Source: Anaerolineales bacterium (lineage in GTDB: Bacteria; Chloroflexota; Anaerolineae; Anaerolineales; Villigracilaceae). From it: a stretch of 15,300 nucleotides of DNA. This document shows, one piece after another, positions 1 through 15,221 of the stretch; the first letter of the stretch is position 1, and each line of letters opens with the position of its first letter. The stretch spans positions 1 to 15,300 of the forward strand of contig JBGANO010000015.1 in NCBI GenBank assembly GCA_044222305.1, read 5' to 3'. A program made the translations under genes and the position numbers. The notes under the pieces are model-generated. The model saw nothing but the letters and a program-made list of their open reading frames with translations. It had not been told where the DNA came from and made no database searches.

Positions 1-696
1 AGAGTTTGCGACGTGTTCGCTAATCCTGTATTACCTTTCTTGGTGAAATCCTAAAATGTTTCCTGATTCTGCACTAGCTGTTCAAATTTTATCCCTCAAA
101 GGCAGAGAACGATTACATACGGTTGGAATGGAAATAAATTTGTTGAAATAACGAATGAGTTCGAACCTCCAGAATATCGCTTTCAGGCAGTTCAAGATGC
201 GGATGCCGCAGTCATTATTGGAAAATACGAAAAGGCGATTCAGTTGTATGATGAAGCAATCACAAGTGGAGAATTGAAATGGTGGTCGCCCGAAAGATTA
301 ATATATGAACAGCACATTGCAAATCCTGTTTATATGTTCAAAGCTACCCCTTCAATAGTTCCTACAGAAAACGCATCCGAATACCCTCGCCTCGCCGCGT
401 ATGCCTACTACCGCATCATGCTCCTCCACTTCGCGCAGGGAAATCAATCAGAAGCCCTCACAACCTACAACACCCTGCTAGAAACTTTTGGCAATGACCC
501 ATACGCTCGTCCCTACGTTGAAATGGCAACCACGTTTTGGGAGGCGTACCAATCCACACATAAAATGTATGATAGTTGCGCGGCGGCGATCCAGTACGCG
601 GTGGAACATCCCGAAATTTTGATTCCGCTGGGGAGCGATTATCATGGGGCGCAGAGTCATATCTATGTGCCTGAGGATGTGTGTCCGTTTAGGTAA
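1..696 (+). pseudogene. Decayed copy A of the tandem lipoprotein family. Only the C-terminal TPR-like part is intact, and the copy is truncated by the window edge.
   Basis: Frame 1 from about nt 67 to TAA 694-696 reads ..IPQRQRTITYGWNGNKFVEITNEFEPPEYRFQAVQDADA.. and is homologous to copies B and C. The last 318 nt are about 95% identical to 1864-2181 by hand count. Every + frame has a stop within nt 1-70: frame 1 TAA 52-54 and TGA 64-66, frame 2 TGA 44-46, frame 3 TAA 21-23. There is no in-frame ATG/GTG/TTG between 67 and TTG 244, so a signal-peptide-bearing protein cannot be read through. Confidence 0.55.
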
Positions 697-990
697 GCGC
701 AAAGCCACCCGCCGACGTTTATGCCAACGATCCCAAGTTGATGCGCGTTACGCAGGAGAATTGTCATGAAAAAACTTACAACCGTTTTCCTCACCATAAT
801 TTTTCTCCTCTCCGCCTGCGGACAACCTGCGCCCATCCCTGTCATTGAAAATGCTACAGCAACTTCGTCCCCACTCCCAACAAACACATCTACTCCAACA
901 GACACACTGACCGCTTCCATTACGCCTCTGCCCACCATCCCCACCTTCACGCCGACATTCGATGCTTCGACGATTGTTACAGTCACGCCC
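379..990 (+). repeat. Conserved junction module 1 of the lipoprotein array: last 318 nt of copy A, the 69-nt spacer, and about 225 nt of the 5' end of copy B.
   Basis: Hand alignment against 1864-2475. Spacers 697-765 and 2182-2250 differ at one position. The 3' blocks show about 17 mismatches in 318 nt. The 5' blocks are identical for 60 nt and then moderately diverged. Confidence 0.8.
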
Positions 991-2181
991 GCGTTAGCCA
1001 GAACATGTCCACAAATCAACTTAGAAACAAAACTAGACACAACCCCTTTTTATGAACATCTCAAGAAGTATTCCGACGATCAAATATTCAAAGTAATTCT
1101 TGAATATCTAAATGCTGGCGGCTCTTGGGGGACACTTACTTCTGAGTTTTCAGACAGCGACCAATATGGTCGGGTCTTGGGTCAAATTAATGAGTTAGAT
1201 TTGACTAATGATGGCATAAAAGATTTTCTGGTAGAAATACCGCCCGGGTTTGGAATCTATTCCTGTAAAAATGGGGTTTATGAGTTATCTCTAAATTTGA
1301 ATGGGGTTGTGGGTGAACCTGCCTCCATAACTAAAACAAAGGACATGAATCTAAATGGCATACCTGAGATTGTGGCAGGCATTACGTTTTGTTCAGGACA
1401 TTGCTTTGACATTTCGATTTTTGAATGGGATGGTCAAGAATTTCAAAACTTGCTGGGTGAATGGCAAACAATCACGTCTTCAGAAGAGAAAATCGTGGAT
1501 GTAAACAATGATGGGCTTTTTGAGTTGGTGATTGAAGGACCATTTCCAAGCATGGGAAGTTATATAGATTACATTCCTTTGCGCGGACAAAAAGATGTAT
1601 ATTTCTGGAATGGAAAAAACTATATTGTGTCTCGTTCTGAATTTTCCCCACCCGTATACCGTTTTCAGGCAATTCAGGATGGGGATGCCGAAACTTTAGA
1701 CGGCAACTTTGATAAGGCTTTGATATTCTACGAGGAAACAATCTTTAGCAAAAATCTACAATGGTGGTCAATGGATCGCAGAGAGCATGAAGTCAAACTA
1801 TATCTGGACATTTGGGATCCAGCAAAACCTACTCCGCCACCTGAACCGCCCGAAGATAAAACCGAATACCCTCGCCTCGCCGCGTATGCCTACTACCGCA
1901 TCATGCTCCTCCACTTCGCGCAAGGAAATGAATCAGAAGCCCTCACAACCTACAACACCCTGCTAGAAACATTTGGCAACGACCCATATACTCATCCCTA
2001 CGTTGAAATGGCAACCGCGTTTTGGGAGGTGTACCAATCCACACATAAAATGTACGATGGTTGCGCGGCGGCGATCCAATACGCGGTGGAACATCCCGAA
2101 ATTTTGATTCCGCTGGGGAGCGATTATCACGGGGCGCAGAGTCATACCTATGTGCCAGAGGATGTATGTCCGTTTCGGTAA
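766..2181 (+). CDS. Secreted lipoprotein, copy B: signal peptide with lipobox, Pro/Thr-rich linker, three FG-GAP/VCBS-like DxNxDG repeats, and a TPR-like helical C-terminal module.
   Basis: 471-aa ORF with AGGAG 7 nt upstream of the ATG. N-terminus MKKLTTVFLTIIFLLSAC has lipobox LSAC with Cys18. PT-rich linker (TSSPLPTNTSTPTDT..PTIPTFTPT). Repeats DLTNDGIKDFLV, DMNLNGIPEIV and DVNNDGLFELV, each followed by W(D/N)G. C-terminal EYPRLAAYAYYRIMLLHFAQGNESEAL.. helical repeats. Confidence 0.85.
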   Translation: MKKLTTVFLTIIFLLSACGQPAPIPVIENATATSSPLPTNTSTPTDTLTASITPLPTIPTFTPTFDASTIVTVTPALARTCPQINLETKLDTTPFYEHLKKYSDDQIFKVILEYLNAGGSWGTLTSEFSDSDQYGRVLGQINELDLTNDGIKDFLVEIPPGFGIYSCKNGVYELSLNLNGVVGEPASITKTKDMNLNGIPEIVAGITFCSGHCFDISIFEWDGQEFQNLLGEWQTITSSEEKIVDVNNDGLFELVIEGPFPSMGSYIDYIPLRGQKDVYFWNGKNYIVSRSEFSPPVYRFQAIQDGDAETLDGNFDKALIFYEETIFSKNLQWWSMDRREHEVKLYLDIWDPAKPTPPPEPPEDKTEYPRLAAYAYYRIMLLHFAQGNESEALTTYNTLLETFGNDPYTHPYVEMATAFWEVYQSTHKMYDGCAAAIQYAVEHPEILIPLGSDYHGAQSHTYVPEDVCPFR

Positions 2182-2475
2182 GTGCAAAGCCACCCGCCGA
2201 CGTTTATGCCAACGATCCCAAGTTGATGCGCGTTACGCAGGAGAATTGTCATGAAAAAACTTACAACCGTTTTCCTCACCATAATTTTTCTCCTCTCCGC
2301 CTGCGGACAATCTTCACCCGTCCCTGTCATTGAAAATGCTACGTCAACCCCGTCCCCGCTCGCAGCAAACACATCTTCGCCAACCCACACACCGACCGCG
2401 TCCATCACGCTCCTGCCCACCATCCCCACTTTCACACCGACATTCGATGTTTCGACGATTGTCACGGTCACGCCT
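1864..2475 (+). repeat. Conserved junction module 2 of the lipoprotein array: 3' end of copy B, spacer, and 5' end of copy C.
   Basis: Same alignment as for 379-990. The period between modules is 1485 bp. Confidence 0.8.
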
Positions 2476-3696
2476 GCGCCGAAGGCGGAGTGTCCGAAAC
2501 CAATTGGTTATCCTGAGAAGGATTTCAATTTAGTTGAATTCAAAGAGAACGGCAATTATCAAAATGGACAAGAGGCAGTTTTATCCTTTCTTAATAAGTA
2601 TGGGGCTGAAGTTTTTGTAGGCTATGAAAGAAATGCGAGAGCAAGTGCAGAAGAAGAAATAGCTTTTCGAGATCTCACCAATGATGGAGCGCCCGAATTA
2701 GCCGTGAGACTGGCTGTTTCTATTGCGTCGACCTCTTTCGAAATCTTTGGTTGTAGAGATGGTGAATATCAAGTGTTACTATCCATTCCTTCGAATAGTT
2801 TGGGCTATGCTCCAATTCTTTTCTCAATTGAAGATAATAATAAAAACGGAATCCCTGAACTCACCATATTAGCAGGTTACTTATCTCAAGGAGGACATTC
2901 TTATGTAGCCTACGAATGGGATGGACAAAAATTCGCAAACATACTTTCTCCTTTTTATCAACATGACCCCGATTCGAAATATTTATGGGCGGAGGCAACT
3001 GGAGAAATTCATTATGATGATATTGACAACGATTTTCTTAATGAGTTGATTTTAGATAGCGGGGTTCCCGTTTGGGAAACTTATTGGTCAGGGCTGCCAT
3101 GGCGAAATAAAAGAACTTATTACAAATGGAATGGTCAAAACTATGCTCCTTATAAAATTGAGTTCGCTCAACCTGAATTTAGATTTCAAGCGGTACAAGA
3201 CGGGGATTTAGCTTTTTCTCAACAAGAATATGACAAGGCATTAAGCTTGTATCAAGATGGAATATTTAGTGACGGGCTAAAGGGTTATTCGCCAGAAATT
3301 CGTGACAACCTTCGAGCACAATGGGATGCTGGATACGGAACCAATCCAACTCCAACGCCATATCCTATTGCAGTAGATGAATATCCAAAATTAGCCGCGT
3401 ATGCTTACTACCGCATCATGCTCCTCCATTTCGCGCAGGGAAATGAATCAGAAGCAACCGCAACTTACAAAACCCTGCAAGCAACATTTGGCAAAGACTC
3501 ATACGCTCATCCCTACGTCGAATTGGCAACCGCGTTTTGGGAGGCATATCAATCCACACATAAAATGTACGATGGCTGTGCGGTGGCGATCCAGTACGCA
3601 GTGGAACATCCCGAAATTTTGATTCCGCTGGGGAGCGATTATCATGGGGCGCAGAGTCATATCTATGTGCCTGAGGATGTGTGTCCGTTTAGGTAA
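2251..3696 (+). CDS. Secreted lipoprotein, copy C, with the same architecture as copy B but a diverged core.
   Basis: 481-aa ORF. The first 60 nt are identical to copy B, and the upstream 69-nt spacer (same AGGAG) differs from it at one position. Repeats DLTNDGAPELAV, DNNKNGIPELT and DIDNDFLNELIL. The C-terminal 106 codons are highly similar to copies A and B. Confidence 0.85.
   Translation: MKKLTTVFLTIIFLLSACGQSSPVPVIENATSTPSPLAANTSSPTHTPTASITLLPTIPTFTPTFDVSTIVTVTPAPKAECPKPIGYPEKDFNLVEFKENGNYQNGQEAVLSFLNKYGAEVFVGYERNARASAEEEIAFRDLTNDGAPELAVRLAVSIASTSFEIFGCRDGEYQVLLSIPSNSLGYAPILFSIEDNNKNGIPELTILAGYLSQGGHSYVAYEWDGQKFANILSPFYQHDPDSKYLWAEATGEIHYDDIDNDFLNELILDSGVPVWETYWSGLPWRNKRTYYKWNGQNYAPYKIEFAQPEFRFQAVQDGDLAFSQQEYDKALSLYQDGIFSDGLKGYSPEIRDNLRAQWDAGYGTNPTPTPYPIAVDEYPKLAAYAYYRIMLLHFAQGNESEATATYKTLQATFGKDSYAHPYVELATAFWEAYQSTHKMYDGCAVAIQYAVEHPEILIPLGSDYHGAQSHIYVPEDVCPFR
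3379..3696 (+). repeat. Terminal half-module: the conserved 3' 318 nt of copy C, with no following spacer or 5' module.
   Basis: The last ~97 nt (from GTGGAACATCCCG to the stop) are identical to copy A, whereas copy B has 6 differences there by hand count. Downstream sequence is unrelated to the 69-nt spacer. Confidence 0.75.
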
Positions 3697-3750: not shown

Positions 3751-3963
3751 ATGATGAAGCCAATCACTGTTTCGCCTAGATTTCAAATAGTTCTTCCAAA
3801 GAAAGTGCGAGAACAGATGCGGATTAGGGCGGGGCAGAAATTGCACGTTATCGCTTATGACAATATCCTCACTTTAATTCCTGTCCGCCCGATACAAGAA
3901 GCGCGCGGCTCGCTTAAAAACATCAAGACGGACGTTGTGCGCGACGATGTGGACCGTGTTTGA
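3751..3963 (+). CDS. AbrB/SpoVT/MazE-type (VapB-like) antitoxin or DNA-binding protein.
   Basis: 70-aa ORF. The N-terminus KPITVSPRFQIVLPKKVREQMRIRAGQKLHV matches the swapped-hairpin AbrB/SpoVT motif (..vtIPkeiReklgi..Gd.l.). AGGAG lies at 3744-3748, so the second ATG at 3754 has the better spacing. Confidence 0.8.
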   Translation: MMKPITVSPRFQIVLPKKVREQMRIRAGQKLHVIAYDNILTLIPVRPIQEARGSLKNIKTDVVRDDVDRV

Positions 3964-4012
3964 CACTTTCCATCATCTTTCTTCTTTCATCCTTCATCAT
4001 TCATCCTTCATA
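3964..4012 (+). repeat. Degenerate heptamer array x7 (consensus NTTCATC), ending 1 nt before the ATG at 4014.
   Basis: cactttc catcatc tttcttc tttcatc cttcatc attcatc cttcata. It contains TTCATCCTTCAT twice (3986-3997 and 4000-4011). Confidence 0.7.
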
Positions 4013-4013
4013 A

Positions 4014-5636
4014 ATGATCTACGATTTCATCATCATCGGCTCAGGCTTCGGGGGAAGTGTCTCCGCCATGCGCCTCACCGAAAAAGGCTATTCCGTTCTC
4101 GTTCTTGAAAAAGGCAAACGCTACGACGATAAAGATTTTGCCAGGACCAACTGGCAATTCTGGAAATATCTCTGGCTCCCCGCCATCCGTGCGCATGGAA
4201 TTTTGCAGGTCAGCATTCTCAAAGGCGCGATGATCCTTCACGGGGCGGGCGTCGGCGGCGGCAGTTTGGGATACGCCAACGTGCTCGAAGTTCCAAGCGA
4301 CGAAACGTTTGGGACTCCCGCGTGGAATCAAACTGTGAAATGGGGTGATGCGTTGCGTCCGCACTACGAGACAGTGCGGCGGATGCTCGGCGTGACGCGC
4401 AATCCCAAACTCTGGAAAGCGGATGAAGTCCTCAAACAAATTGCGGATGAACGCGGCATGGGGCACACTTTCCGCGCGACGGATGTCGGTTCATTCTTCG
4501 GGGAGGCTGGGGTCACCGTCCCTGATCCATTTTTCGGCGGCGACGGACCCGCCCGCGCAGGGTGCATCCATTGCGGCGGGTGCATGGTGGGATGTCGTCA
4601 CAACGCGAAGAACACACTCCCGAAGAATTATTTGTATTTCGCGGAGAAGAATGGGGCAAAAGTAATTTCAGAATCAGAAGTGACCGACGTTCGACCTTTG
4701 ACCTTTGACAATGAAGAGTCGAAAGTCGAAGGTCAAAGGTCGGATGCTCGTTACAAAATTACGTATCAATCATCAACATCGCTGTTCAAACGCAAACACA
4801 CGGTCTATGCAAAGAATGTAATTTTCTCCGCTGGCGTGATGGGGACGATGAAATTGTTGCTCAACTTGCGCGATGTGAAAAAGTCATTGCCGAATCTTTC
4901 GCCGCGACTTGGCGACATGGTGCGCACAAACTCCGAAGCATTGCTCGGCTCGATCGCCCGCGGATCGGATGTGGACTTTTCACAAGGCGTTTCGATCTCA
5001 TCCATTATGAACGCGGACGAAGTGACGCGCGTCGAACCTGTCCGCTACCCAAATGGATCGTCGCTGATGCGTTTTCTCGGCGCTCCGCTCGTCTCCGATG
5101 TGACGAATGTCCCCGCCCGCATCGTCCGCTCTCTCACGTGGATTCTTCGCCATCCGATAGACTACCTCCGCGCGATGATCTTCCCCAACTGGGCGCACAA
5201 CGTGACCATCCTGCTCGTCATGCAACACGTAGACAATCACATGAAATTCCGCATCGGACGCAGTCCGCTCACGCTCTTCCGTCGCGGCTTGGTCGCGCAA
5301 CCCGACGCGGATCACCAAATCCACGCGCGGGTGGATGCGGGTCACGATGTGACACGTGAGTTTGCAAAGCGCATCAACGGCGCGGCGCTCGGCTCCATCA
5401 CCGAGAACGCGTTCAACCTCCCCACCACTGCCCACATCCTCGGTGGCGCGCCGATGGGACAAAACGCCGAAGAAGGTGTTGTGGACGAAAATTTCCAAAT
5501 CCACAACTACGAAGGTATGTACATCATAGACGGCTCGATCATGCCCGCGAATCCTGGCGTCAACCCGTCGCTGACCATCACCGCGCTGGCAGAATATGCG
5601 ATGAGTAAGGTGGGGAGTAAACAGGGAAACATGTAG
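4014..5636 (+). CDS. GMC-family FAD-dependent oxidoreductase (cholesterol-oxidase-like).
   Basis: 540-aa ORF. N-terminal Rossmann motif DFIIIGSGFGGSVSAMRLTEKGYSVLVLEKG. Cys-rich CIHCGGCMVGC segment typical of this subgroup. C-terminal GMC signature GMYIIDGSIMPANPGVNPSLTITALAE. Confidence 0.88.
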   Translation: MIYDFIIIGSGFGGSVSAMRLTEKGYSVLVLEKGKRYDDKDFARTNWQFWKYLWLPAIRAHGILQVSILKGAMILHGAGVGGGSLGYANVLEVPSDETFGTPAWNQTVKWGDALRPHYETVRRMLGVTRNPKLWKADEVLKQIADERGMGHTFRATDVGSFFGEAGVTVPDPFFGGDGPARAGCIHCGGCMVGCRHNAKNTLPKNYLYFAEKNGAKVISESEVTDVRPLTFDNEESKVEGQRSDARYKITYQSSTSLFKRKHTVYAKNVIFSAGVMGTMKLLLNLRDVKKSLPNLSPRLGDMVRTNSEALLGSIARGSDVDFSQGVSISSIMNADEVTRVEPVRYPNGSSLMRFLGAPLVSDVTNVPARIVRSLTWILRHPIDYLRAMIFPNWAHNVTILLVMQHVDNHMKFRIGRSPLTLFRRGLVAQPDADHQIHARVDAGHDVTREFAKRINGAALGSITENAFNLPTTAHILGGAPMGQNAEEGVVDENFQIHNYEGMYIIDGSIMPANPGVNPSLTITALAEYAMSKVGSKQGNM

Positions 5637-5742
5637 ACAGGTAAACAGGGAAACACGTAGACACGGAAACACGTAACTCGTAACTTGTATCTCGTATCTT
5701 TCCTCTTTCATCTTTCATAATTCATCCTTCATCCTTTACAAT
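5617..5742 (+). repeat. Continuous short-period array: 7 octamers (G[TG]A[AG]ACAN, 5617-5672) followed by 10 drifting heptamers (5673-5742).
   Basis: gtaaacag ggaaacat gtagacag gtaaacag ggaaacac gtagacac ggaaacac | gtaactc gtaactt gtatctc gtatctt tcctctt tcatctt tcataat tcatcct tcatcct ttacaat. It starts inside the GMC CDS (stop TAG 5634-5636) and ends 7 nt before the ATG at 5750. Confidence 0.8.
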
Positions 5743-5749
5743 AAACACC

Positions 5750-7060
5750 ATGCCAACCTTTTCCCCCTCCCTCTCCTTCGCCCAAGAACTCGACTCCCTC
5801 GACCCCCTCGCTTCCTACCGCGAGCAATTCGTCATCACCGACCCCGACCTGATCTACCTCGACGGCAACTCGCTGGGGCGTATGCCCAAGTCTGCGGCAG
5901 AACGCGCCAAGCAGGTGATAGACGAAGAGTGGGGGCACGACCTAATCCGCGGCTGGAACAAAGGCTGGTGGGAAGCCCCGACTCGCGTGGGCGACAAGAT
6001 CGGAAAATTAATCGGCGCAGAAGCGGGTCAAGTGATCGTTACAGACACGGTTTCAAGCAACCTCTTCAAACTCGCCACCGCCGCGCTCACACACCAACCA
6101 AACAAAAAACGAATCATCACCGATACATTTAATTTCCCCTCCGATCTGTACATCCTCCAGGGGATTCAACACCTCTTATCAGACTCAATACGCAGTACGC
6201 AGCACGCAGTACACAACACGCAATACGAAGTAATCCGCATCACCGCAAGCGATAACGACATTACACCGAATATCACCGAACTTGAATCTGTAATCAATGA
6301 AAACACGGCTTTGGTTACTTTATCGCATGTTGTTTTTAAAAGCGGATATATCTATGACATGCAAAGAATCACAGAACTCGCGCACGCCAAAGGCGCATTG
6401 GTTCTTTGGGATTTGAGTCACTCCGTCGGCGCGGTTCCCATCGAACTCGACAACTGCAACGCCGACCTCGCCATCGGATGCACTTACAAATATCTCAACG
6501 GCGGTCCGGGCGCGCCCGCCTTCCTCTATGTCAACAAAAAGATTCAAGAAAAACTTACCTCGCCCATCTGGGGTTGGTGGGGACAAAAACATCCGTTCGA
6601 CTTCGGTCTCGACTACGAACCCGCCGCAGGCGCGCGAAGATTTTTAGCAGGCACACAACCGATGATCTCCATGCTCACAATGGAAACCGCCCTCGAACCG
6701 ACTCTGCAAGCAGGCATGGACTTCATCCGCGCCAAATCCATCTTGATGACGGACTACGCTTCTTTCCTGACGGATAGCTGGCTCGCCCCTCTCGGCTTTT
6801 CCCTCGGCTCCCCGCGTGACTCTGCCATGCGCGGCTCCCACATCTCCATCCGCCACACGGACGGCTACCGAATCAACCGCGCCCTCATCGAAGAGATGGG
6901 CGTCATCCCCGACTTCCGCGAACCCGACAACATCCGCTTAGGATTTTCATCGCTCTACACATCCTTTGTTGAAATTCGGGAAGGCTTCGATCGCATCAAG
7001 CGCGTGATGGATGAAAAGCGATACGAGAAATATCCGAAGCAAAGGTTGACCGTCACATAA
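5750..7060 (+). CDS. kynU: Kynureninase (PLP-dependent, EC 3.7.1.3).
   Basis: 436-aa ORF. Family motifs: YLDGNSLG, VTDTVSSNLFKL, FPSDLY, WDLSHSVGAVP, the PLP-lysine motif GCTYKYLNGGPGAP, RFLAGTQP, MRGSHISI and PDFREPDNIRLGF. The matches are to Pseudomonas-type kynureninase as recalled from memory. Confidence 0.9.
   Translation: MPTFSPSLSFAQELDSLDPLASYREQFVITDPDLIYLDGNSLGRMPKSAAERAKQVIDEEWGHDLIRGWNKGWWEAPTRVGDKIGKLIGAEAGQVIVTDTVSSNLFKLATAALTHQPNKKRIITDTFNFPSDLYILQGIQHLLSDSIRSTQHAVHNTQYEVIRITASDNDITPNITELESVINENTALVTLSHVVFKSGYIYDMQRITELAHAKGALVLWDLSHSVGAVPIELDNCNADLAIGCTYKYLNGGPGAPAFLYVNKKIQEKLTSPIWGWWGQKHPFDFGLDYEPAAGARRFLAGTQPMISMLTMETALEPTLQAGMDFIRAKSILMTDYASFLTDSWLAPLGFSLGSPRDSAMRGSHISIRHTDGYRINRALIEEMGVIPDFREPDNIRLGFSSLYTSFVEIREGFDRIKRVMDEKRYEKYPKQRLTVT
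6190..6231 (+). repeat. In-frame degenerate heptamer array x6 inside kynU.
   Basis: acgcagt acgcagc acgcagt acacaac acgcaat acgaagt = 42 nt = 14 codons, within the segment encoding SDSIRSTQHAVHNTQYEV. Confidence 0.75.
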
Positions 7061-7130
7061 ACAGACGATTGACCATAGACCACAGACACTGCCTCTCATT
7101 CATCGTCTAACGTCCATCGTCAATGGTCGT
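7061..7130 (+). repeat. Drifting heptamer array x10 in the spacer after kynU.
   Basis: acagacg attgacc atagacc acagaca ctgcctc tcattca tcgtcta acgtcca tcgtcaa tggtcgt. It begins immediately after stop TAA 7058-7060. Confidence 0.55.
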
Positions 7131-7152: not shown

Positions 7153-7797
7153 ATGGAATCCAAACCCGACACAATCAAAGTATCAGCCAATCATAAAGAG
7201 GAAATATCCGCCAACCGCGCGGACTTGTTCGTGACCGTCAAAGGATCGTCGCTCGTCGGCGGGGACGCGGCGATGAAAAAAGCCAAAGAGGTGAGTCAAC
7301 TCGTCGAAGCGGTGACCAGTCTGGGGGTGGAGTCCGAAGCGATCCACTTGCAGGGAGTCCACATCGAGACGTCGAGCGGCGCGTTGCTGAAATCATCCAG
7401 CGCGACGTATCGGTTGAAAATCCAGTGTGAAAAATTGGATTCACTCGCCGAGATACTCGATGTCGTCTCAGAGCAAAAGAACGCGACGCTGGAGCGCATT
7501 GCATGGAAATACAACGAAGACGAAGCGCATGAACGCGGCTTGCTCGCGGCGTTGGAAAAAGCCAAAAGCAAAGCGGATAAAGTGGCGAAGACGATGGGCG
7601 TGAAGATTCTTGGGGTGTACGATTTGATCGAAAACAGTTTTGATGAAGAAATGCCCTATCCGCAATTTGCCGCCATGCAGGCCGCGCCAAAGCGCTCGGT
7701 AGGTATAACACCCGAACCCAGCCTCGGCATGGACATTCAGCACAGCAAAACAGTCAACGTCAATGTAGAAATTTGGTATCGCGTGTCCCCACTTTAA
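7153..7797 (+). CDS. SIMPL/DUF541-family protein (oxidative-stress-defence or 26-kDa periplasmic immunogenic protein family).
   Basis: ORF 7123-7797. The ATG at 7153 is preferred because it has AAGGA about 9 nt upstream and ATG 7123 lies inside the heptamer array. Typical family pattern: ..I.VS....EISANRADLFVTV...S......AMKKAKEVSQLVEAV...GV....I...GV.I. No signal peptide was seen. Confidence 0.7.
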   Translation: MESKPDTIKVSANHKEEISANRADLFVTVKGSSLVGGDAAMKKAKEVSQLVEAVTSLGVESEAIHLQGVHIETSSGALLKSSSATYRLKIQCEKLDSLAEILDVVSEQKNATLERIAWKYNEDEAHERGLLAALEKAKSKADKVAKTMGVKILGVYDLIENSFDEEMPYPQFAAMQAAPKRSVGITPEPSLGMDIQHSKTVNVNVEIWYRVSPL

Positions 7798-8576: not shown

Positions 8577-9581
8577 ATGACTTCAGAAACCATAATCGTT
8601 GACCAACTCAGCAAAACGTATCAAGTGCCAGAACGCGAAGGCGGATTCGGCGCGGCGGTGCGTGGCTTCTTCAAACGCAAATACAAAGATGTGAAAGCCG
8701 TGCAGGAGGTCAACTTCAAGATCGAGCAGGGAGAGATCGTCGGCTTTCTCGGTCCGAACGGCGCGGGCAAGACGACCACGCTCAAAATGCTCTCTGGTTT
8801 GCTCCACCCCACCGAAGGCAAAGCCGTTGTGCTTGGATTCACTCCGTGGGAATTGAAAGCCGATTACCTGCGCTCGATGACCCTCGTGATGGGACAACGC
8901 AACCGCCTCGCATGGGACATCCCCGCGGCGGATTCGTATTTGCTCGCCCAAGCCATTTACCGCCTTTCCGATGATGACTACAAAAAAACATACAAAGAAC
9001 TCGATGAACTACTCGAACTCGAACCGTTGATGAAGAAGCCCGTCCGCAATCTTTCGCTGGGTGAACGGATGAAAGTCGAGATCGCGGCGGGATTGTTACA
9101 TCGCCCCAAAGTGTTGTTCCTCGACGAACCCACAATTGGATTGGATATCACAGGTCAGGTAAAGATCCGCGAATTTTTGCGCGAGTACAACAAACGCACA
9201 GGCGCGACGATTCTGCTCACGAGTCATTACATGGCGGACGTGACCGCGTTGTGCGAGCGGATCATCATCATCCATCACGGTCAACTCAAATATGACGGCG
9301 GCATCGCCAACCTGTCGCGTCGCATCGCGCCGTTCAAGTTGATCGGCGTGCGACTTGCCCTGAGCGGAGACGAAGGGTTGGAGAAGTCGAACGGACGCGA
9401 TCTGTCGCAGTATGGCGAACCAGTTCAAAATGAGGAAGACGCGGAGAAGGTCTACATCCGCGTCAAATCGGAGGATGTCACGAAAGTCACATCGCGCATG
9501 TTGTCCGAACTCCCCATCCACGATATCACGATCGCCGATCCGCCGATCGAGGATGTGATCGAGCGGGCGTTTAATGAATAA
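8577..9581 (+). CDS. ABC transporter ATP-binding protein (COG4586-like uncharacterised ABC-2 system).
   Basis: 334 aa. Walker A GPNGAGKTT, Q-loop MGQR, signature LSLGERMK, Walker B VLFLDEPT, H-loop TSHYM, and an extra C-terminal domain of about 90 aa. Confidence 0.92.
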   Translation: MTSETIIVDQLSKTYQVPEREGGFGAAVRGFFKRKYKDVKAVQEVNFKIEQGEIVGFLGPNGAGKTTTLKMLSGLLHPTEGKAVVLGFTPWELKADYLRSMTLVMGQRNRLAWDIPAADSYLLAQAIYRLSDDDYKKTYKELDELLELEPLMKKPVRNLSLGERMKVEIAAGLLHRPKVLFLDEPTIGLDITGQVKIREFLREYNKRTGATILLTSHYMADVTALCERIIIIHHGQLKYDGGIANLSRRIAPFKLIGVRLALSGDEGLEKSNGRDLSQYGEPVQNEEDAEKVYIRVKSEDVTKVTSRMLSELPIHDITIADPPIEDVIERAFNE

Positions 9582-9599
9582 ACCTTTTCACCGCGAAGC

Positions 9600-9654
9600 G
9601 CGCGAAGACCACAAAGAAAAAAGATTTTCCTTCGCGTTCTTGGCGGTCTTCGCG
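9600..9654. repeat. Palindromic element of the CGCGAAGACCACAAAG type, inside the ABC operon.
   Basis: Arms CGCGAAGACCACAAAGAA (9601-9618) and TTCTTGGCGGTCTTCGCG (9637-9654) pair at 16 of 18 positions. It lies between the ATPase stop (9581) and the permease start (9669). Confidence 0.65.
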
Positions 9655-9668
9655 GTTAAGGAAGTTTT

Positions 9669-10466
9669 ATGTTAAACATTTTCAAACGACTCTGGCAGGT
9701 GAACTGGGCGGAGCAGTGGCAATACCGCGCCAACCTCGCCATGTACATTTTATATTGGCTCGTTTCGCCGATCATTTATCTCTCGGTGTGGACGAGCATC
9801 GCCACCGTCAACGGCGACGTGAAGGGGCTGACCGCCAACGACTTCATCACGTATTACATGATCCTGCTCATCGTGGATCAACTCACCAGCAACATCATCA
9901 TTCATAACTTCGGATACAAAGTGCAAGACGGCTCGCTCTCGGGCGAACTCATCAAACCGATTCATCCGATGCTGACGAACGCGCTGGTGAACGACATCGC
10001 CTTCAAGACGTTGAACATGATGCTGTTGATTCCGATCTGGATCGGGCTTGCGCTTCTCTTCAAGCCTCAGTTTGATTCAGTTTCCTGGAGCGGAATCGCC
10101 CTTGCGATCCCCGTCATCATGCTGGGTTACGCCATCAACTTTTTACTCTCGGGCATTATCACCTCGCTCGCCTTCTGGACGACGCGCGTGTACTCGATTC
10201 ACGAATTTTATTACGCGCTGACCTTGTTATTTGCAGGCTCCTTCGTGCCGTTGCAATTAATGCCTGATGTGATTCAAAATATCGCGCGCGTTCTGCCGTT
10301 TCAATTATTTATGTACCTGCCGATTCAAATAATTCAAGGGAATCTTTCCATGAGCGAAATCACGCAAGGATATATAACAGGCATCCTCTGGTTCATCGCC
10401 GCGCTGATCGGATTCCGATTCGTCTGGCGCGAGGGAGTCAAACGATACGCCGCGGTGGGAGCGTGA
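9669..10466 (+). CDS. ABC-2 family permease (ABC2_membrane_6 / COG4587-like).
   Basis: 265-aa hydrophobic ORF with about 6 predicted TM segments. AGGA lies 6 nt upstream. It directly follows the ATPase on the same strand. Confidence 0.82.
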   Translation: MLNIFKRLWQVNWAEQWQYRANLAMYILYWLVSPIIYLSVWTSIATVNGDVKGLTANDFITYYMILLIVDQLTSNIIIHNFGYKVQDGSLSGELIKPIHPMLTNALVNDIAFKTLNMMLLIPIWIGLALLFKPQFDSVSWSGIALAIPVIMLGYAINFLLSGIITSLAFWTTRVYSIHEFYYALTLLFAGSFVPLQLMPDVIQNIARVLPFQLFMYLPIQIIQGNLSMSEITQGYITGILWFIAALIGFRFVWREGVKRYAAVGA

Positions 10467-11381: not shown

Positions 11382-11390
11382 AGACCTCAG

Positions 11391-11420
11391 CCACAGATTA
11401 CACGGATTCTCACGGATTTT
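11391..11420 (+). repeat. Degenerate 10-nt tandem repeat x3.
   Basis: ccacagatta cacggattct cacggatttt, 10 nt after the permease stop. Confidence 0.6.
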
Positions 11421-11452
11421 TATTTAAAGACCGTCTGGTGATCGAATCAAAA

Positions 11453-11483
11453 AGCCAACCCTCTAAGTCGGGTTGGCTTTTCT
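11453..11483. terminator. Bidirectional rho-independent terminator between convergent genes.
   Basis: 9-bp stem AGCCAACCC (11453-11461) / GGGTTGGCT (11470-11478) with an 8-nt loop. It is flanked by AAAAA upstream and TTTTCT downstream, so there is a U-tract on both strands. Confidence 0.75.
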
Positions 11484-11560
11484 GTGTAAATCGGTGAAAC
11501 TTGTGCTGACGGTTCGTCTTTCGCTCACCGTGCCGAAGTATCCGTGGCTAAAAGCTCGTA

Positions 11561-12090: not shown

Positions 12091-12187
12091 ATTGCGTACG
12101 GTAAGTTACTGAATGGACGAATTTCCTACCGAAAAGTTCCCGTAAATATTTTGTGTAGAGAGCGCTCTCTAGCGCACTTTTTCAATT

Positions 12188-12296
12188 GACCTCTTGCGAA
12201 AGTCTCTTCGCCACAGAGAGCACAGAGAAAAAAGAGATTTTCTCAAAGGTCTCTGTGGACTCTGTGGCTAAGCAAAACGCACTTATGCAAGAGATC
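12188..12296. repeat. Nested palindromic element of the GCCACAGAG type.
   Basis: Inner arms GCCACAGAGAGCACAGAG (12210-12227) / CTCTGTGGACTCTGTGGC (12251-12268) pair at 16 of 18 positions. Outer arms are GACCTCTTGCGAAAG (12188-12202) / CTTATGCAAGAGATC (12282-12296). Confidence 0.6.
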
Positions 12297-12309: not shown

Positions 12310-13131
12310 CTACGGCCTCAATCGGTTGAAATTTCTCCGCGCAAACAATGTGATCCCCGCCGCGGCAGAGACGTTCAACGACTCCACTTTTTGATTAATG
12401 GGGATACTAACCTTCAAGTTCGCGGCGTTTTCGATCTCAAGCGAGCATCCCTCTTTTTCATTGCCGAAGACAATCAGCAATCGCTCAGGGATGGATGCGA
12501 TCTCATCCACCGTTTTTTCTGCGTCCGCAGATGTGACCAGCAAAGTTTGTTTGTTTTGTGCGCAATAGTCAATCAATTGACTTGTTGTCGCAGTCATTAC
12601 GGGCAAAGTAAACAGATAGCCCCTGCTCGCGCGGATCAACCTGCGGTCGTAAATATCGAGCGGATCCATGTTCAGCAGGATCATCCCGCCCACGCCCAAC
12701 GCCAACGACGTGCGGATGATGTTGCCGATGTTGCCCGAAATGCTCACATCTTCCAGCACAACCACATCCTTAGTGATGCTCTTCAATTTTTCCAATCCGA
12801 TGGGTTTGGGAGCCTCGGCGATGGCGAAGATACGCGAGAGTTTGTCGTTCTCGAACAGTTTCTTTGTCGTCCGCTTTGCCACCTCATGGATGGTCGCGCC
12901 TGCTGTGAGTTTCTTTCGCAGGGTTTCCGAAATTACATCGTCGCCCGAAAAATAAACGGATTCAATTTCAATCCCTGCCTCGAGGGCTTGCAGGATATTT
13001 TCCTCGTCGTCAATGATGATCTGGTTGAGTTCGCGCCGTCCCTCGCGCGTGAGCAGTTTGCGGATGGGTCCCGCGAGGGGATGATTAAGGGAATCAACGA
13101 GGAAGGGGTTGTTTTCGGAGGGTTCGTTCAT
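12310..13131 (-). CDS. SPOUT (SpoU/TrmH) RNA 2'-O-methyltransferase that most resembles thiostrepton/nosiheptide-resistance 23S rRNA A1067 methyltransferases (Tsr/NHR).
   Basis: 273 aa. SPOUT motifs: VVVLEDVSISGNIGNIIRTSLALG, YDRRLIRASRGYLFTLPV, LLIVFGNEKEG, SIPINQKVESLNVSAAAGI. These closely parallel Streptomyces azureus Tsr as I recall it ([70 protein letters not shown]). The size is similar and there is an N-terminal L30e-like domain. SPOUT membership is firm. The specific substrate is an inference. Confidence 0.8.
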   Translation of the reverse strand: MNEPSENNPFLVDSLNHPLAGPIRKLLTREGRRELNQIIIDDEENILQALEAGIEIESVYFSGDDVISETLRKKLTAGATIHEVAKRTTKKLFENDKLSRIFAIAEAPKPIGLEKLKSITKDVVVLEDVSISGNIGNIIRTSLALGVGGMILLNMDPLDIYDRRLIRASRGYLFTLPVMTATTSQLIDYCAQNKQTLLVTSADAEKTVDEIASIPERLLIVFGNEKEGCSLEIENAANLKVSIPINQKVESLNVSAAAGITLFARRNFNRLRP

Positions 13132-13994: not shown

Positions 13995-14032
13995 GTTGAA
14001 GGCGTTCGGTTTCTTGTGGTATCCTTCGCCCG

Positions 14033-14887
14033 ATGATTCCAAACCCTTCGACTTCGCTCAGGACAGGCTTGCCCCGCCTCGATATTTTGCCCATCGAAAG
14101 TTTGATCTTGCATGAAGACCACGACGCGCAGAGGAGCGCGCCGCTGATCGAGAAGTTGCGCGGCGCGGGCGTGTTGCGAAACCCTCCGATCGTGATGCCG
14201 CTGACAGATGGCACGGAACGATACATGGTGCTGGACGGCGCGAACCGAGTCACTTCGTTGCATGAGTTGGAATTTCCACACCTCGTGGCGCAGGTGGTGG
14301 AAGCGGACGATCAAAATGTAAATTTGCAAACGTGGAACCACGTTGTCTGGGGGATGAGCGCGAAGTCGTTGATGAGCGAGCTTCGCAAACTGAAAGGCGT
14401 GGATGTTGTAAAAGTCGACCCGCATAAATCGGTGGACGCGCCGAAGTACGCGCCTGTCAACGCGCGCCTGCCCGACGGGAAATTGTATTTGCTCCTGGAA
14501 GACCCCACCGACCTTGCGAATCATATCGCCACCCTTCATGCGATTGTGAACGCGTACAAAACCTCCGCGTCGCTCGACCGCACCAGCCAGACGTTGATCG
14601 AACCGTTCCGCGAAGTACACAAAGACCTGACCGCGCTGATCATCTTTCCGCGGTTTAAGATTCGCACTTTGCTCAAACTTGCGGGGCGAAAGATCGTCCT
14701 GCCTACCGGCATCACGCGCTTCACGGTTTCGCCGCGCACGTTGCATTTGAATTATCCACTGCACGAGTTATCGAGCGGCAAGCCGATTGAATACAAAAGA
14801 GAATATCTCAAGAAGTGGGTGGACGAGCGCGTGATGAAGAAGGGCGTTCGTTTGTATGCCGAAGCGACGTTTTTGTTTGATGAGTGA
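14033..14887 (+). CDS. ParB/Sulfiredoxin-fold protein that resembles SbnI/SerK-type free L-serine kinases.
   Basis: 284 aa. IESLILHED..PPIVMPLTDGTERYMVLDGANRVTSLHELEFPHLVAQVV..LQTWNHVV parallels S. aureus SbnI as I recall it (IDLHE..HPILVTAMQHGRYMVIDGVHRYTSLKALG..ISTWQHKV). C-terminal LPTGITRFTVSPRTLHLNYPLHEL parallels VPAGVTRFNISGRCLNLQVPLALL. The start is uncertain: codons 4-12 are repeat-derived, and an in-frame TTG at 14069 has AGGA 5 nt upstream. Confidence 0.65.
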   Translation: MIPNPSTSLRTGLPRLDILPIESLILHEDHDAQRSAPLIEKLRGAGVLRNPPIVMPLTDGTERYMVLDGANRVTSLHELEFPHLVAQVVEADDQNVNLQTWNHVVWGMSAKSLMSELRKLKGVDVVKVDPHKSVDAPKYAPVNARLPDGKLYLLLEDPTDLANHIATLHAIVNAYKTSASLDRTSQTLIEPFREVHKDLTALIIFPRFKIRTLLKLAGRKIVLPTGITRFTVSPRTLHLNYPLHELSSGKPIEYKREYLKKWVDERVMKKGVRLYAEATFLFDE

Positions 14888-14893
14888 AATGCA

Positions 14894-14960
14894 AGAGACT
14901 AGAGATTAGAGAATAGAGAATAGTGGACTAGAGAATTAGAGAACTAGAGAATTAGAGGAT
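14894..14960 (+). repeat. Short-period array: 5 heptamers (AGAGANT) then 4 octamers (TAGAGAAY).
   Basis: agagact agagatt agagaat agagaat agtggac | tagagaat tagagaac tagagaat tagaggat. It starts 7 nt after stop TGA 14885-14887. Confidence 0.75.
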
Positions 14961-15096
14961 TTGTCGCCACGCATCGTCCCGACACCGCACCTGTGGTGGG
15001 TGCAAGTGCGCTCATTGGGAGTGAGCGCAGAGAACTTTGAGTTTTTGTCCTTGAACATCTATGACGACTCTCTTTGACCATTGAACTGTTCAACTC

Positions 15097-15179
15097 GGGA
15101 CTTTCGCTTTTACTGCTCCAAGAGACCGTCGCTTTGCTGGCAAACACGGCGGTCACAGACGACCTGCGAGCGAAAGCCC
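15097..15179 (+). other. Candidate structured RNA or leader element with nested helices. The strand is not established.
   Basis: Outer helix GGG(A)CTTTCGC (15097-15107) / GCGAAAGCCC (15170-15179) has 10 bp with one bulge. Inner helix GACCGTCG (15124-15131) / CGGCGGTC (15147-15154) is capped by TTTG-CTGG-CAAA. It lies 43 nt upstream of a possible ATG. Confidence 0.3.
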
Positions 15180-15185
15180 TACAAT

Positions 15186-15221
15186 TATCAAACTACTGAA
15201 CTATCAAACTATCAAACTACC
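15186..15221 (+). repeat. Degenerate octamer array x4.5 (TATCAAAC) abutting an ATG.
   Basis: tatcaaac tactgaac tatcaaac tatcaaac tacc, followed directly by ATG 15222. Confidence 0.7.

Follow-up and report, generated by a model that had tools for sequence, protein, structure and literature searches.

What fills the spacer between two adjacent metabolic genes, and does it bear on the expression of the second? The question arises from a 15,300-nt stretch of DNA from an uncultured Anaerolineales (Chloroflexota) bacterium (hereafter the window, meaning the whole stretch), in which a tract of short tandem units at positions 5617–5742 joins the end of a gene for a GMC-family oxidoreductase to the start of a kynureninase gene. 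The tract is a composite simple-sequence repeat. We propose, with a probability of about one half, that it is filler built by slippage whose gene-proximal, G-free end would act as an expression signal for kynureninase, independent of a Shine–Dalgarno (SD) sequence and with the geometry of a leaderless promoter.

Structure of the array

The array runs through the last codons of the oxidoreductase gene and most of the 113-nt spacer, and consists of seven octamers (Part A) followed by two kinds of heptamer (Parts B1 and B2; Table 1). Tandem Repeats Finder (TRF) detected period 8 at 5617–5676 (7.5 copies) and, with a score of 89 and 90 % matches, period 24 at 5617–5671 (2.3 copies); a 24-nt higher-order unit of three 8-mers describes the octamers better. 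Among the heptamers, period 14 was found at 5673–5700 and period 7 at 5668–5696 and 5696–5733. The array is imperfect, with TRF matches of 75–90 %. An initial annotation of this DNA had described octamers passing into ten heptamers that drift stepwise, and both the unit sequences and the two periods were reproduced; nine of the ten heptamers are indeed repeat units, the last, TTACAAT, which closes the tract at 5742, not being a repeat copy. The drift itself is strong: edit distance increases from 1.9 between neighbouring units to ∼5 at a separation of 9–10 units (Spearman 0.73), a correlation that none of 5000 permutations of the unit order reached. With a TRF score of at least 40, six arrays were found in the window and none in any of five dinucleotide-preserving shuffles, whilst the related loci held 39 against 6–9 in shuffles.

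The two halves differ in composition. Part A is A/G-rich and T-poor (5 T per 56 nt) and has stop triplets in two of the three frames, the third being covered by TAA 5674 in Part B1; Part B has 22 C against 4 G within 77 nt. As previously noted, the array begins inside the oxidoreductase gene, so that its last six codons (SKQGNM) and the TAG stop (5634–5636, in the third unit) are repeat-encoded, and it ends 7 nt before the kynureninase ATG. Orthologous oxidoreductases end in SKHVNR or SKHGNR, stopping at the TAG of the same (third) unit. The kynureninase start is fixed by N-terminal conservation, with orthologues aligning from residue 1, and because the 55 nt upstream of it contain no G at all, no SD sequence is possible there, in agreement with the initial annotation.

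Several other identities for the tract were considered and set aside. An assembly artefact was ruled out because two independent Logan assemblies, built from other sequencing runs, match the window at 100 % identity along stretches of 3.2 kb and 2.5 kb that contain the array. The spacer has no inverted repeat and is unstructured, its minimum free energy (MFE) being −31.5 kcal/mol against −33.2 in shuffles (z = +0.42), and Rfam gave no match at E ≤ 1 across the whole window; a structured RNA or riboswitch was ruled out on the grounds of folding and Rfam together, and the lack of an inverted repeat or of excess folding also rejects a palindromic element, such as a repetitive extragenic palindrome (REP) or bacterial interspersed mosaic element (BIME), as the identity of the array. 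Pairing of Part A with Part B into a long hairpin was likewise rejected (z = +0.42 in the window and +0.96 in the related locus L003). The units, of 7–8 nt and contiguous without spacers, rule out a CRISPR array, in which repeats of 23–47 nt alternate with unique spacers of similar length. Finally, a scan of the spacer detected no terminator-like site, and a minus-strand open reading frame (ORF) at 4998–5711, which begins inside the array and lies antisense to the conserved oxidoreductase gene, is taken as spurious.

Weak 7/14-nt periodicity was also seen inside both flanking genes, at 4693–4742 in the oxidoreductase gene (GACCTTT and AGTCGAA units) and at 6186–6232 in the kynureninase gene (TACGCAG-type units encoding ...IRSTQHAVHNTQYEV...).

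Table 1. Coordinates of the repeat array, its flanking genes and comparable features of the window
Feature	Position	Strand	Details
GMC-family oxidoreductase gene	4014–5636	+	Pfam GMC_oxred_C (4.2e-17) and GMC_oxred_N; ORF list
Array, Part A	5617–5672	+	Seven octamers: GTAAACAG GGAAACAT GTAGACAG GTAAACAG GGAAACAC GTAGACAC GGAAACAC
Array, Part B1	5673–5700	+	Heptamers GTAACTC GTAACTT GTATCTC GTATCTT (GTAWCTY); 14-nt super-period
Array, Part B2	5701–5735	+	Five G-free heptamers TCCTCTT TCATCTT TCATAAT TCATCCT TCATCCT (TCNTCYT)
Promoter-like site TTCATA-N17-TACAAT	5714–5742	+	In the last repeat units; consensus scan 9/12; −10-like hexamer ends 7 nt before ATG
Gap AAACACC	5743–5749	+	7 nt between −10-like hexamer and kynureninase ATG; no SD sequence
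Kynureninase gene	5750–7060	+	Pfam KYNU_C (3.7e-26); first 30 nt hold one G
G-free heptamer array (TCATCCT type)	3964–4013	+	Runs up to the oxidoreductase start; TRF 3969–4011
Purine-rich, C-poor octamer array (TAGAGAAT type)	14894–14961	+	6 nt after the stop of gene 14033–14887; TRF
G-poor octamer array (TATCAAAC type)	15186–15221	+	Abuts ATG 15222; TRF 15186–15219
TTGACA-N17-TATTAT-N7-ATG	13167–13139	−	11/12 consensus; before minus-strand gene ending at 13131
TTGAAG-N18-TATCCT-N7-ATG	13996–14032	+	Before gene 14033
Imperfect hairpin with 7-nt periodic arms	7064–7128	+	Arms 7064–7087/7105–7128, 75 % complementary; kynureninase–SIMPL spacer
Three 9–10-nt direct repeats (AATCCGTG type)	11391–11420	−	Arm of a long inverted repeat around intrinsic terminator 11450–11481

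Variation of the array among relatives

Relatives of the kynureninase were found only in metagenome-assembled genomes of Anaerolineales/Chloroflexota and in metagenome contigs. Gene order and the same array are kept in four species-level relatives, L001, L003 (identical to L044), L043 and L045, with 87–89 % protein identity; identity at fourfold degenerate sites is 0.65–0.71 to the window and 0.65–0.82 over all pairs. In each of the four, the octamers start in the last codons, the TAG falls in the third unit, and GTAWCTY and then TCNTCTT heptamers follow. Differences among the orthologous arrays come in whole units, with alignment gaps of 8, 8 and 21 nt, as slippage or unequal duplication would leave them. 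The most copy-number-variable block is Part B1, with one GTAWCTY unit in L043, three in L003, four in the window, 5–6 in L001 and 17 in L045. A comparison of orthologous spacers had been proposed with the initial annotation, and it places arrays at the same positions in close relatives with a varying number of units. In three samples the array is identical, and these are identical everywhere else too.

Other relatives carry different sequence at this position. A strong hairpin occupies the same spacer in L048, L051 and L052 (78–83 % identity; −29.4 kcal/mol, z = −4.2 in L048), another hairpin is found in L004 and L006 (80 %; −42.7 kcal/mol, z = −8.8 in L004), and the spacer of L010 (75 %) measures 30 nt and contains AGGAG. 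Of the L048-type hairpin, the right arm, CCTT(A/T)GTG...GTGGT(A/G)AAA, persists beside the ATG in L001, L003, L045, L046 and L005, and the octamers resemble its left arm by eye (GTACACAAGGAAACAC in L003, GTCACGAAGGAACAC in L048), so that Part A looks like a relic of that arm. We therefore picture, tentatively, repeats that grew inside and over an ancestral REP-like stem-loop, which would no longer fold (z = +0.42 in the window, +0.96 in L003) and whose right arm, in the window and L043, would have given way to units of the TCATCCT type. Such an array would have been built by whole-unit replication slippage or duplication, with a ∼40-nt pyrimidine module also being copied between adjacent spacers. 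This one spacer offers a compact comparative series: an SD-containing spacer, a hairpin, a hairpin invaded by repeats, and a pure repeat with a promoter-like end.

Copying is apparent from the second array of the locus, upstream of the oxidoreductase gene, whose positions 3975–4011 match the pyrimidine half of the focal array (5696–5732) at 92 % identity over 37 nt. Part B2 of the window has 24 nt identical to the oxidoreductase-upstream array of L003, and the two arrays of L043 have 24 identical nt in common, including an L043-specific variant unit, TCACCCT. These identities, in the window and in L043, show that blocks have been copied or converted across the 1.7 kb that separates the two spacers. 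The TCATCCT module is the only recurring one, at two adjacent spacers. The initial annotation had held that the unit is different at every site, which the 92 % identity contradicts. It had also denied that the tract was a one-unit microsatellite or a dispersed repeat; with its imperfect 7–8-nt units the tract does count as a simple-sequence repeat, and part of it is a dispersed copy. Its suggestion of slippage or templated patching as the process that fills spacers agrees with both the whole-unit differences and the copied blocks. Synonymous sites place L043 nearer to L001 than to the window, and yet the tail TTCATAAT...TACAAT is common to the window and L043, which points to recombination or an old polymorphism.

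Two further observations concern the same genes and units. In L002 (962–1333), L063 (∼9300–10000), L007, L012, L049, L053 and L067, a small gene is inserted between the oxidoreductase and kynureninase genes; its product, perhaps GxxExxY-like, ends in ...LLLNFGTGSLEHRRVIK, and the gene is followed by a triple AATCCGTG motif, in L002 as a 48-nt unit repeated 2.6 times. In L009, a relative with 78 % identity, GTAACTY/GTATCTY heptamers lie antisense in a dehydrogenase-like ORF (5067–5092; also L008, 5127–5398), with other heptamer runs nearby.

Lineage-wide periodicity and two classes of array

The search for 7–8-nt periodicity was extended to sets of ∼125 kb of DNA per clade, the set for the window clade comprising four further loci and 9.7 kb of spacer; gene calls were crude (longest ORFs of at least 100 aa) and loci partly orthologous. 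In spacers of the window clade, the match frequency at lag 7 was 0.294 against 0.254 in dinucleotide shuffles (z = 9.3), with a further excess at lag 14 (z = 5.5). Spacers of other Anaerolineales gave z = 3.2 at lag 7, those of the Roseiflexaceae and Bacillales outgroups showed no lag-7 excess (z negative), and coding sequence had only the 3-nt period. Of 70 arrays, 28 lie in non-coding sequence, which makes up ∼10 %. The genome-wide kind of check suggested with the initial annotation thus yields an excess over shuffles that is confined to the clade and its order. Of the two outcomes named there as refuting, no enrichment over shuffles and arrays missing or displaced in close relatives, neither was observed.

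Five recurrences of the array had also been listed within the window. Those at 3964–4012, 14894–14960 and 15186–15221 are arrays of 7- or 8-nt units, whilst 7061–7130 and 11391–11420 proved to be hairpin-type elements (see below). The oxidoreductase-upstream array is orthologous in L001, L003 and L043 and absent in L045 and L063, and the start region that it precedes (−40 to +20) has an MFE of −1.8 kcal/mol. The array at 14894–14961 has TAG in all three frames; its orthologues contain three to eight units, or GAGTAGA seven times in L063, and L004 has none. At the position of 15186–15221, the units of orthologues are CTATTCAA or ACTACCAA, with 10.6 copies in L063, and L004 has a 12-nt spacer without repeats. 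Between these last two arrays, positions 14962–15185 form a conserved block, ...GCAGAGAACTTTGAG...CTTTGACGACTCTCYYTGACC..., with orthologues in L001, L003, L045 and L063; as a promoter it was rejected, there being no consensus match, and in L045 an extra hairpin with periodic arms is inserted in it.

Taken by position, the arrays fall into two composition classes. Post-stop arrays are purine-rich and C- or T-poor, with stop triplets rotating through all three frames (14894–14961; L001 6288–6343; L048 2943–2974; GAGTAGA ×7 in L063), whereas pre-start arrays are nearly G-free on the sense strand (3964–4013; 5695–5749; 15186–15221; L011 637–679, minus strand; L039 3929–3947; ACTACCAA ×10.6 in L063). 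As a single spacer can hold both classes on the same strand, replication-strand mutation bias alone is insufficient to account for them. In the window, arrays end 2, 7 and 0 nt before the ATGs at 4014, 5750 and 15222, in sense orientation and without an SD sequence, and close relatives have arrays at these positions too. Unit sequence varies from one array to another, no single unit recurs at many loci in the ∼125 kb per clade, and no array has TAACTGA.

The same asymmetry appears when leaders are counted. At most one G in the 30 nt upstream was found for 12 of 81 starts in the clade, representing only ∼four gene families, against one start with at most one C; in other Anaerolineales the corresponding counts are 2 and 8 of 160, and in the outgroups 0 and 9 of 124. 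Initiation regions (−40 to +20) of the G-free starts average −1.1 kcal/mol, compared with −9.2 for the other 101 starts, and an SD-like motif is found at none of the former and at 39 of the latter. The organism does use SD sequences elsewhere, with AGGAG before the genes at 766, 2251, 3751 and 11971.

A candidate leaderless promoter at the gene-proximal end

The last repeat units of the focal array contain a promoter-like site. Its two hexamers are 17 nt apart and 7 nt separate TACAAT from the ATG at 5750, the geometry of a sigma-70 promoter for a leaderless mRNA, although the match is only 9/12. The same site with the same spacing is present in L043, where the 29 nt show one difference, against ∼30 % divergence at fourfold sites; the L043 gap before the ATG, GCACATC, differs from that of the window at three positions. 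Across the clade, TANNNT ends 7 nt upstream of 9 of 113 starts, the background being ∼1 per position, and in other Anaerolineales it ends 6 nt upstream of 13 of 209. Since TANNNT is so sharply enriched 6–7 nt before starts across loci, leaderless mRNAs seem common in Anaerolineales. This is in keeping with a published survey, in which leaderless genes are recognized by TA-like signals located ∼10–12 nt upstream of the start codon and a TAtaaT-type signal is listed for a set of phyla that includes the Chloroflexi (Zheng et al., 2011; PMC3160421). Like the genes described there, those found here have TANNNT starting ∼12–13 nt before the start codon and no SD sequence; unlike them, the −35-like and −10-like hexamers at this locus are formed by, or embedded in, tandem-repeat units.

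The window also holds two textbook examples of this arrangement, upstream of the minus-strand gene ending at 13131 and of gene 14033 (Table 1). Together with the L043 site and the TANNNT enrichment, these suggest that the gene-proximal units may act as the promoter of a leaderless kynureninase mRNA, the remaining units probably being tolerated filler. On read-through transcripts the gene-proximal units would serve as a leader free of structure and of start codons, as the 55-nt G-free run cannot hold an SD sequence, an alternative ATG, GTG or TTG start, or a stable RNA structure. Because of this run, translation would start without an SD sequence on a leaderless transcript and on a read-through mRNA alike, and the SD-independent initiation platform that the initial annotation had envisaged is plausible. 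Additionally, the TCATCCT unit contains CATCCT, one base off the TATCCT −10 hexamer of gene 14033, and CATCCT sits 6–7 nt before the oxidoreductase start codon in all four array-bearing orthologues; as a possible −10-like element, it is a lead only.

A number of points weigh against this proposal. The 9/12 match is weak on its own, and promoter matches overall are no commoner than in shuffles (19 found, 15.2 expected). Three of the five orthologous arrays (L001, L003 and L045) end in a G-containing CCTTTGTG...GTGGTAAAA motif, and because their tails differ, the promoter-like tail is not a constant feature of the array; for these three, whose arrays end in the hairpin arm, a promoter reading does not hold. 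The counts of G-free leaders (12 of 81) and of TANNNT (9 of 113) are inflated by orthology and stand for only ∼4–6 independent genes. The tail common to the window and L043 may reflect recombination rather than selection. Identity of the array between species (84–87 %) is only modestly above that at fourfold sites (65–82 % across pairs), and it is an insecure sign of purifying selection, since repeats align too easily and any neighbouring unit will serve. Lastly, relatives manage without any array, so that no part of it is essential.

Alternative explanations

Many of these same points would be expected if the tract were purely neutral filler, slippage-prone sequence tolerated in spacers, with the promoter-like tail and the G-free composition mere by-products of the units that happened to expand. 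We regard this as possible, though we doubt it. It sits well with the hairpin, the 30-nt SD-containing spacer or the 12-nt spacer found at the same positions in relatives, with widely varying unit numbers, with conservation only slightly above that of synonymous sites and with the weakness of the promoter match. Harder to reconcile with neutrality is that composition depends on position within one locus and strand, purine-rich after the stop and G-free before the start; moreover, G-free leaders outnumber C-free ones 12 to 1 in the clade and the reverse holds elsewhere, and TACAAT-N7-ATG fits a positionally enriched signal.

A second possibility, about which we are rather doubtful, is that the tract is an unstructured, SD-less leader on a polycistronic mRNA with the oxidoreductase gene. 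Its G-free half would keep the start codon single-stranded, and ribosomes would load by way of protein S1, from a standby site or, having terminated at the TAG, by 70S scanning. The region from −50 to +30 around the kynureninase ATG has an MFE of 0 kcal/mol, the scan placed no terminator-like site in the spacer, and the 113 nt contain a single TTG and no ATG or GTG. The same idea has been put forward for TAACTGA repeats (PMC4679880), and non-SD starts tend in general to lie in weakly structured sequence (PMC5397173). This lack of structure, however, follows from composition alone (z near 0), and the orthologues L001, L003 and L045 have G-containing tails. Such a leader is compatible with the leaderless promoter proposed above and does not exclude it.

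More far-reaching, and in our judgement unlikely, is the view that the arrays are not junk at all, being evolvable expression modules. G-free heptamer or octamer arrays would provide an approach to the start codon without further start codons or RNA structure, and the TTCATCC family would automatically phase −35-like (TTCATC/TTCATA) and −10-like (CATCCT/CATAAT/TACAAT) elements, three units plus 2 nt giving a 17-nt spacer. Given such phasing, promoters of leaderless genes could arise, shift or be tuned through whole-unit slippage and through copying from one spacer to another, and the stop-rich purine arrays after an upstream gene would insulate reading frames.

We consider it quite improbable that the tract is a binding array for a protein such as S1 or one with a cold-shock domain, which would coat the leader, each monomer recognizing ∼7 nt of single-stranded nucleic acid rich in pyrimidines. 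The analogy is with Bacillus CspB, for which a preference for pyrimidine-rich heptamers (consensus GTCTTTG/T) is given in PMC1904285 and binding of one protein per heptamer is reviewed in PMC4679880, and with units here such as GTATCTT, TCCTCTT and TCATCTT. It is a resemblance only, and units that differ between arrays and drift within one argue against a sequence-specific binder. Rho utilization (rut) sites are marked by an excess of C over G and by absence of structure. The unstructured, C-rich and G-poor 77 nt of Part B have both features and might load Rho after the TAG, coupling downstream transcription to translation; the other pre-start arrays are only 34–50 nt long and the tract directly precedes a start codon, which makes this role most unlikely. 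Least credible of all is a contingency locus, in which the downstream gene would undergo phase variation, being switched frequently by changes in the count of units: unit number does differ between species and the repeats are promoter-proximal, but the units are imperfect, lowering slippage rates, and the flanking genes encode metabolic enzymes, not surface proteins.

Hairpin elements and neighbouring genes

The first of the two hairpin-type sites, at 7064–7128, has 24-nt arms and an MFE of −17.8 kcal/mol (z = −2.6), and none of 200 shuffles folds as well. A bipartite array before ATG 7123 had looked like a parallel to the focal case and was rejected, since this site is a hairpin and the gene probably starts at 7153 instead. 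ATG 7123, the longest-ORF start of the SIMPL/DUF541 gene, lies in a hairpin arm and is unconserved, homologues aligning from residue 10–11; ATG 7153, with AAGGA upstream, is probably the start of this gene. The second site, 11391–11420, belongs to a dispersed family with a 9–10-nt period and a GTGGCTAAA end, distinct from the 7–8-nt class.

Intergenic hairpins whose arms are 7–10-nt tandem repeats (CCACNGAG/CTCNGTGG type), often with a loop of an A-run followed by a T-run, form a family of their own. Members in the window lie at 9582–9668, 12185–12270, 7064–7128 and 11389–11420 with 11537–11549, and in relatives at L004 9925–10003, L048 4725–4822 and L002 1343–1469. The right arm ends in GTGG(C/T)AAA, 2–15 nt before a start codon. 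The family folds strongly (z = −3.5 to −8.8) and has no Rfam match. [quoted passage not shown]

These elements invite comparison with REP/BIME hairpins. As in those, the strong stem-loops of relatives at the focal position lie between co-directional genes and lack a U-tail, and the window itself has such hairpins at 7064–7128, 9582–9668 and 12185–12270. The focal array differs, having no inverted repeat and folding no better than shuffles, and the hairpins of these loci differ from REPs in that their arms are themselves 7–10-nt tandem repeats; we know of no description of tandem-repeat arms as a property of REPs.

Upstream of the oxidoreductase gene, positions 244–3696 hold three tandem paralogous lipoprotein-like genes without a Pfam match. 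Those at 766–2181 and 2251–3696 are 51 % identical overall, with the first ∼80 and last ∼90 residues nearly identical, and are preceded by identical 69-nt spacers (697–765 and 2182–2250). Their divergent cores have ∼38–39 % GC compared with ∼50 % at the ends, which suggests conversion of the ends or cassette-like variable cores. The 70-aa gene that follows (3751–3963) is AbrB/MazE-type antitoxin-like (Pfam MazE_antitoxin, 2e-7) and has no obvious toxin partner, the next gene being the oxidoreductase gene.

Relation to known repeats and significance

Heptamer arrays cluster at gene boundaries in a few lineages, namely filamentous cyanobacteria, Beggiatoaceae and Xanthomonas, and to our knowledge the function of heptamer simple-sequence repeats has never been established. 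Long simple-sequence repeats with units of 5–11 nt are known in prokaryotes, heptamers being the commonest and slippage the proposed origin (Mrazek, 2007, as summarized in PMC4679880). The focal array belongs to this class, being beyond chance, mostly non-coding and variable in unit number.

Two described systems come closest. The GGGAATC repeats of Xanthomonas and the GGGGAYT short tandemly repeated repetitive (STRR) sequences of Nostoc and Calothrix are intergenic, lie near the upstream ORF and between the same genes in relatives, and vary extensively in length (PMC4692102). The arrays described here resemble the Xanthomonas and Nostoc repeats in the dominance of a 7-nt unit, in an intergenic position close to the 3′ end of the upstream ORF, in their placement between the same genes in related species, in variation of both length and sequence, and in a proposed slippage origin. 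In contrast to the G-rich, quadruplex-forming units of one consensus in those systems, the present arrays come as purine-rich post-stop and G-free pre-start classes, and are composite and graded, with blocks copied between spacers. The TAACTGA repeats of marine Beggiatoaceae and some Cyanobacteria and Bacteroidetes lie a few nucleotides from start codons in place of an SD sequence, with S1, Csp proteins and CsrA discussed as binders and translational roles proposed (MacGregor, 2015; PMC4679880). Common to these and to the present arrays are intergenic heptamers in sense orientation a few nucleotides from the start, replacement of the SD sequence, genes of unrelated function and filamentous bacterial hosts. 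TAACTGA is, however, one fixed heptamer at 169 loci, whereas the present units vary from array to array and also drift within one; the closest to it, TAACTYG, has 5 of 7 bases in common, 8-nt units occur as well, and the phylum is Chloroflexota. A literature search found no report of tandem or heptamer repeats in Anaerolineae/Chloroflexi.

The locus extends the phenomenon of intergenic heptamer repeats to the Chloroflexota and provides a candidate link between repeats of this type and leaderless gene expression. It also carries a practical lesson, in that gene callers will tend to misplace starts and to call spurious ORFs in such tracts, as with the minus-strand ORF 4998–5711 and ATG 7123. Should the link to leaderless expression be false, the locus documents a lineage-specific inflation of spacers by slippage; should it be true, bacteria would have in slippage-prone repeats an easy means of making and tuning promoters.

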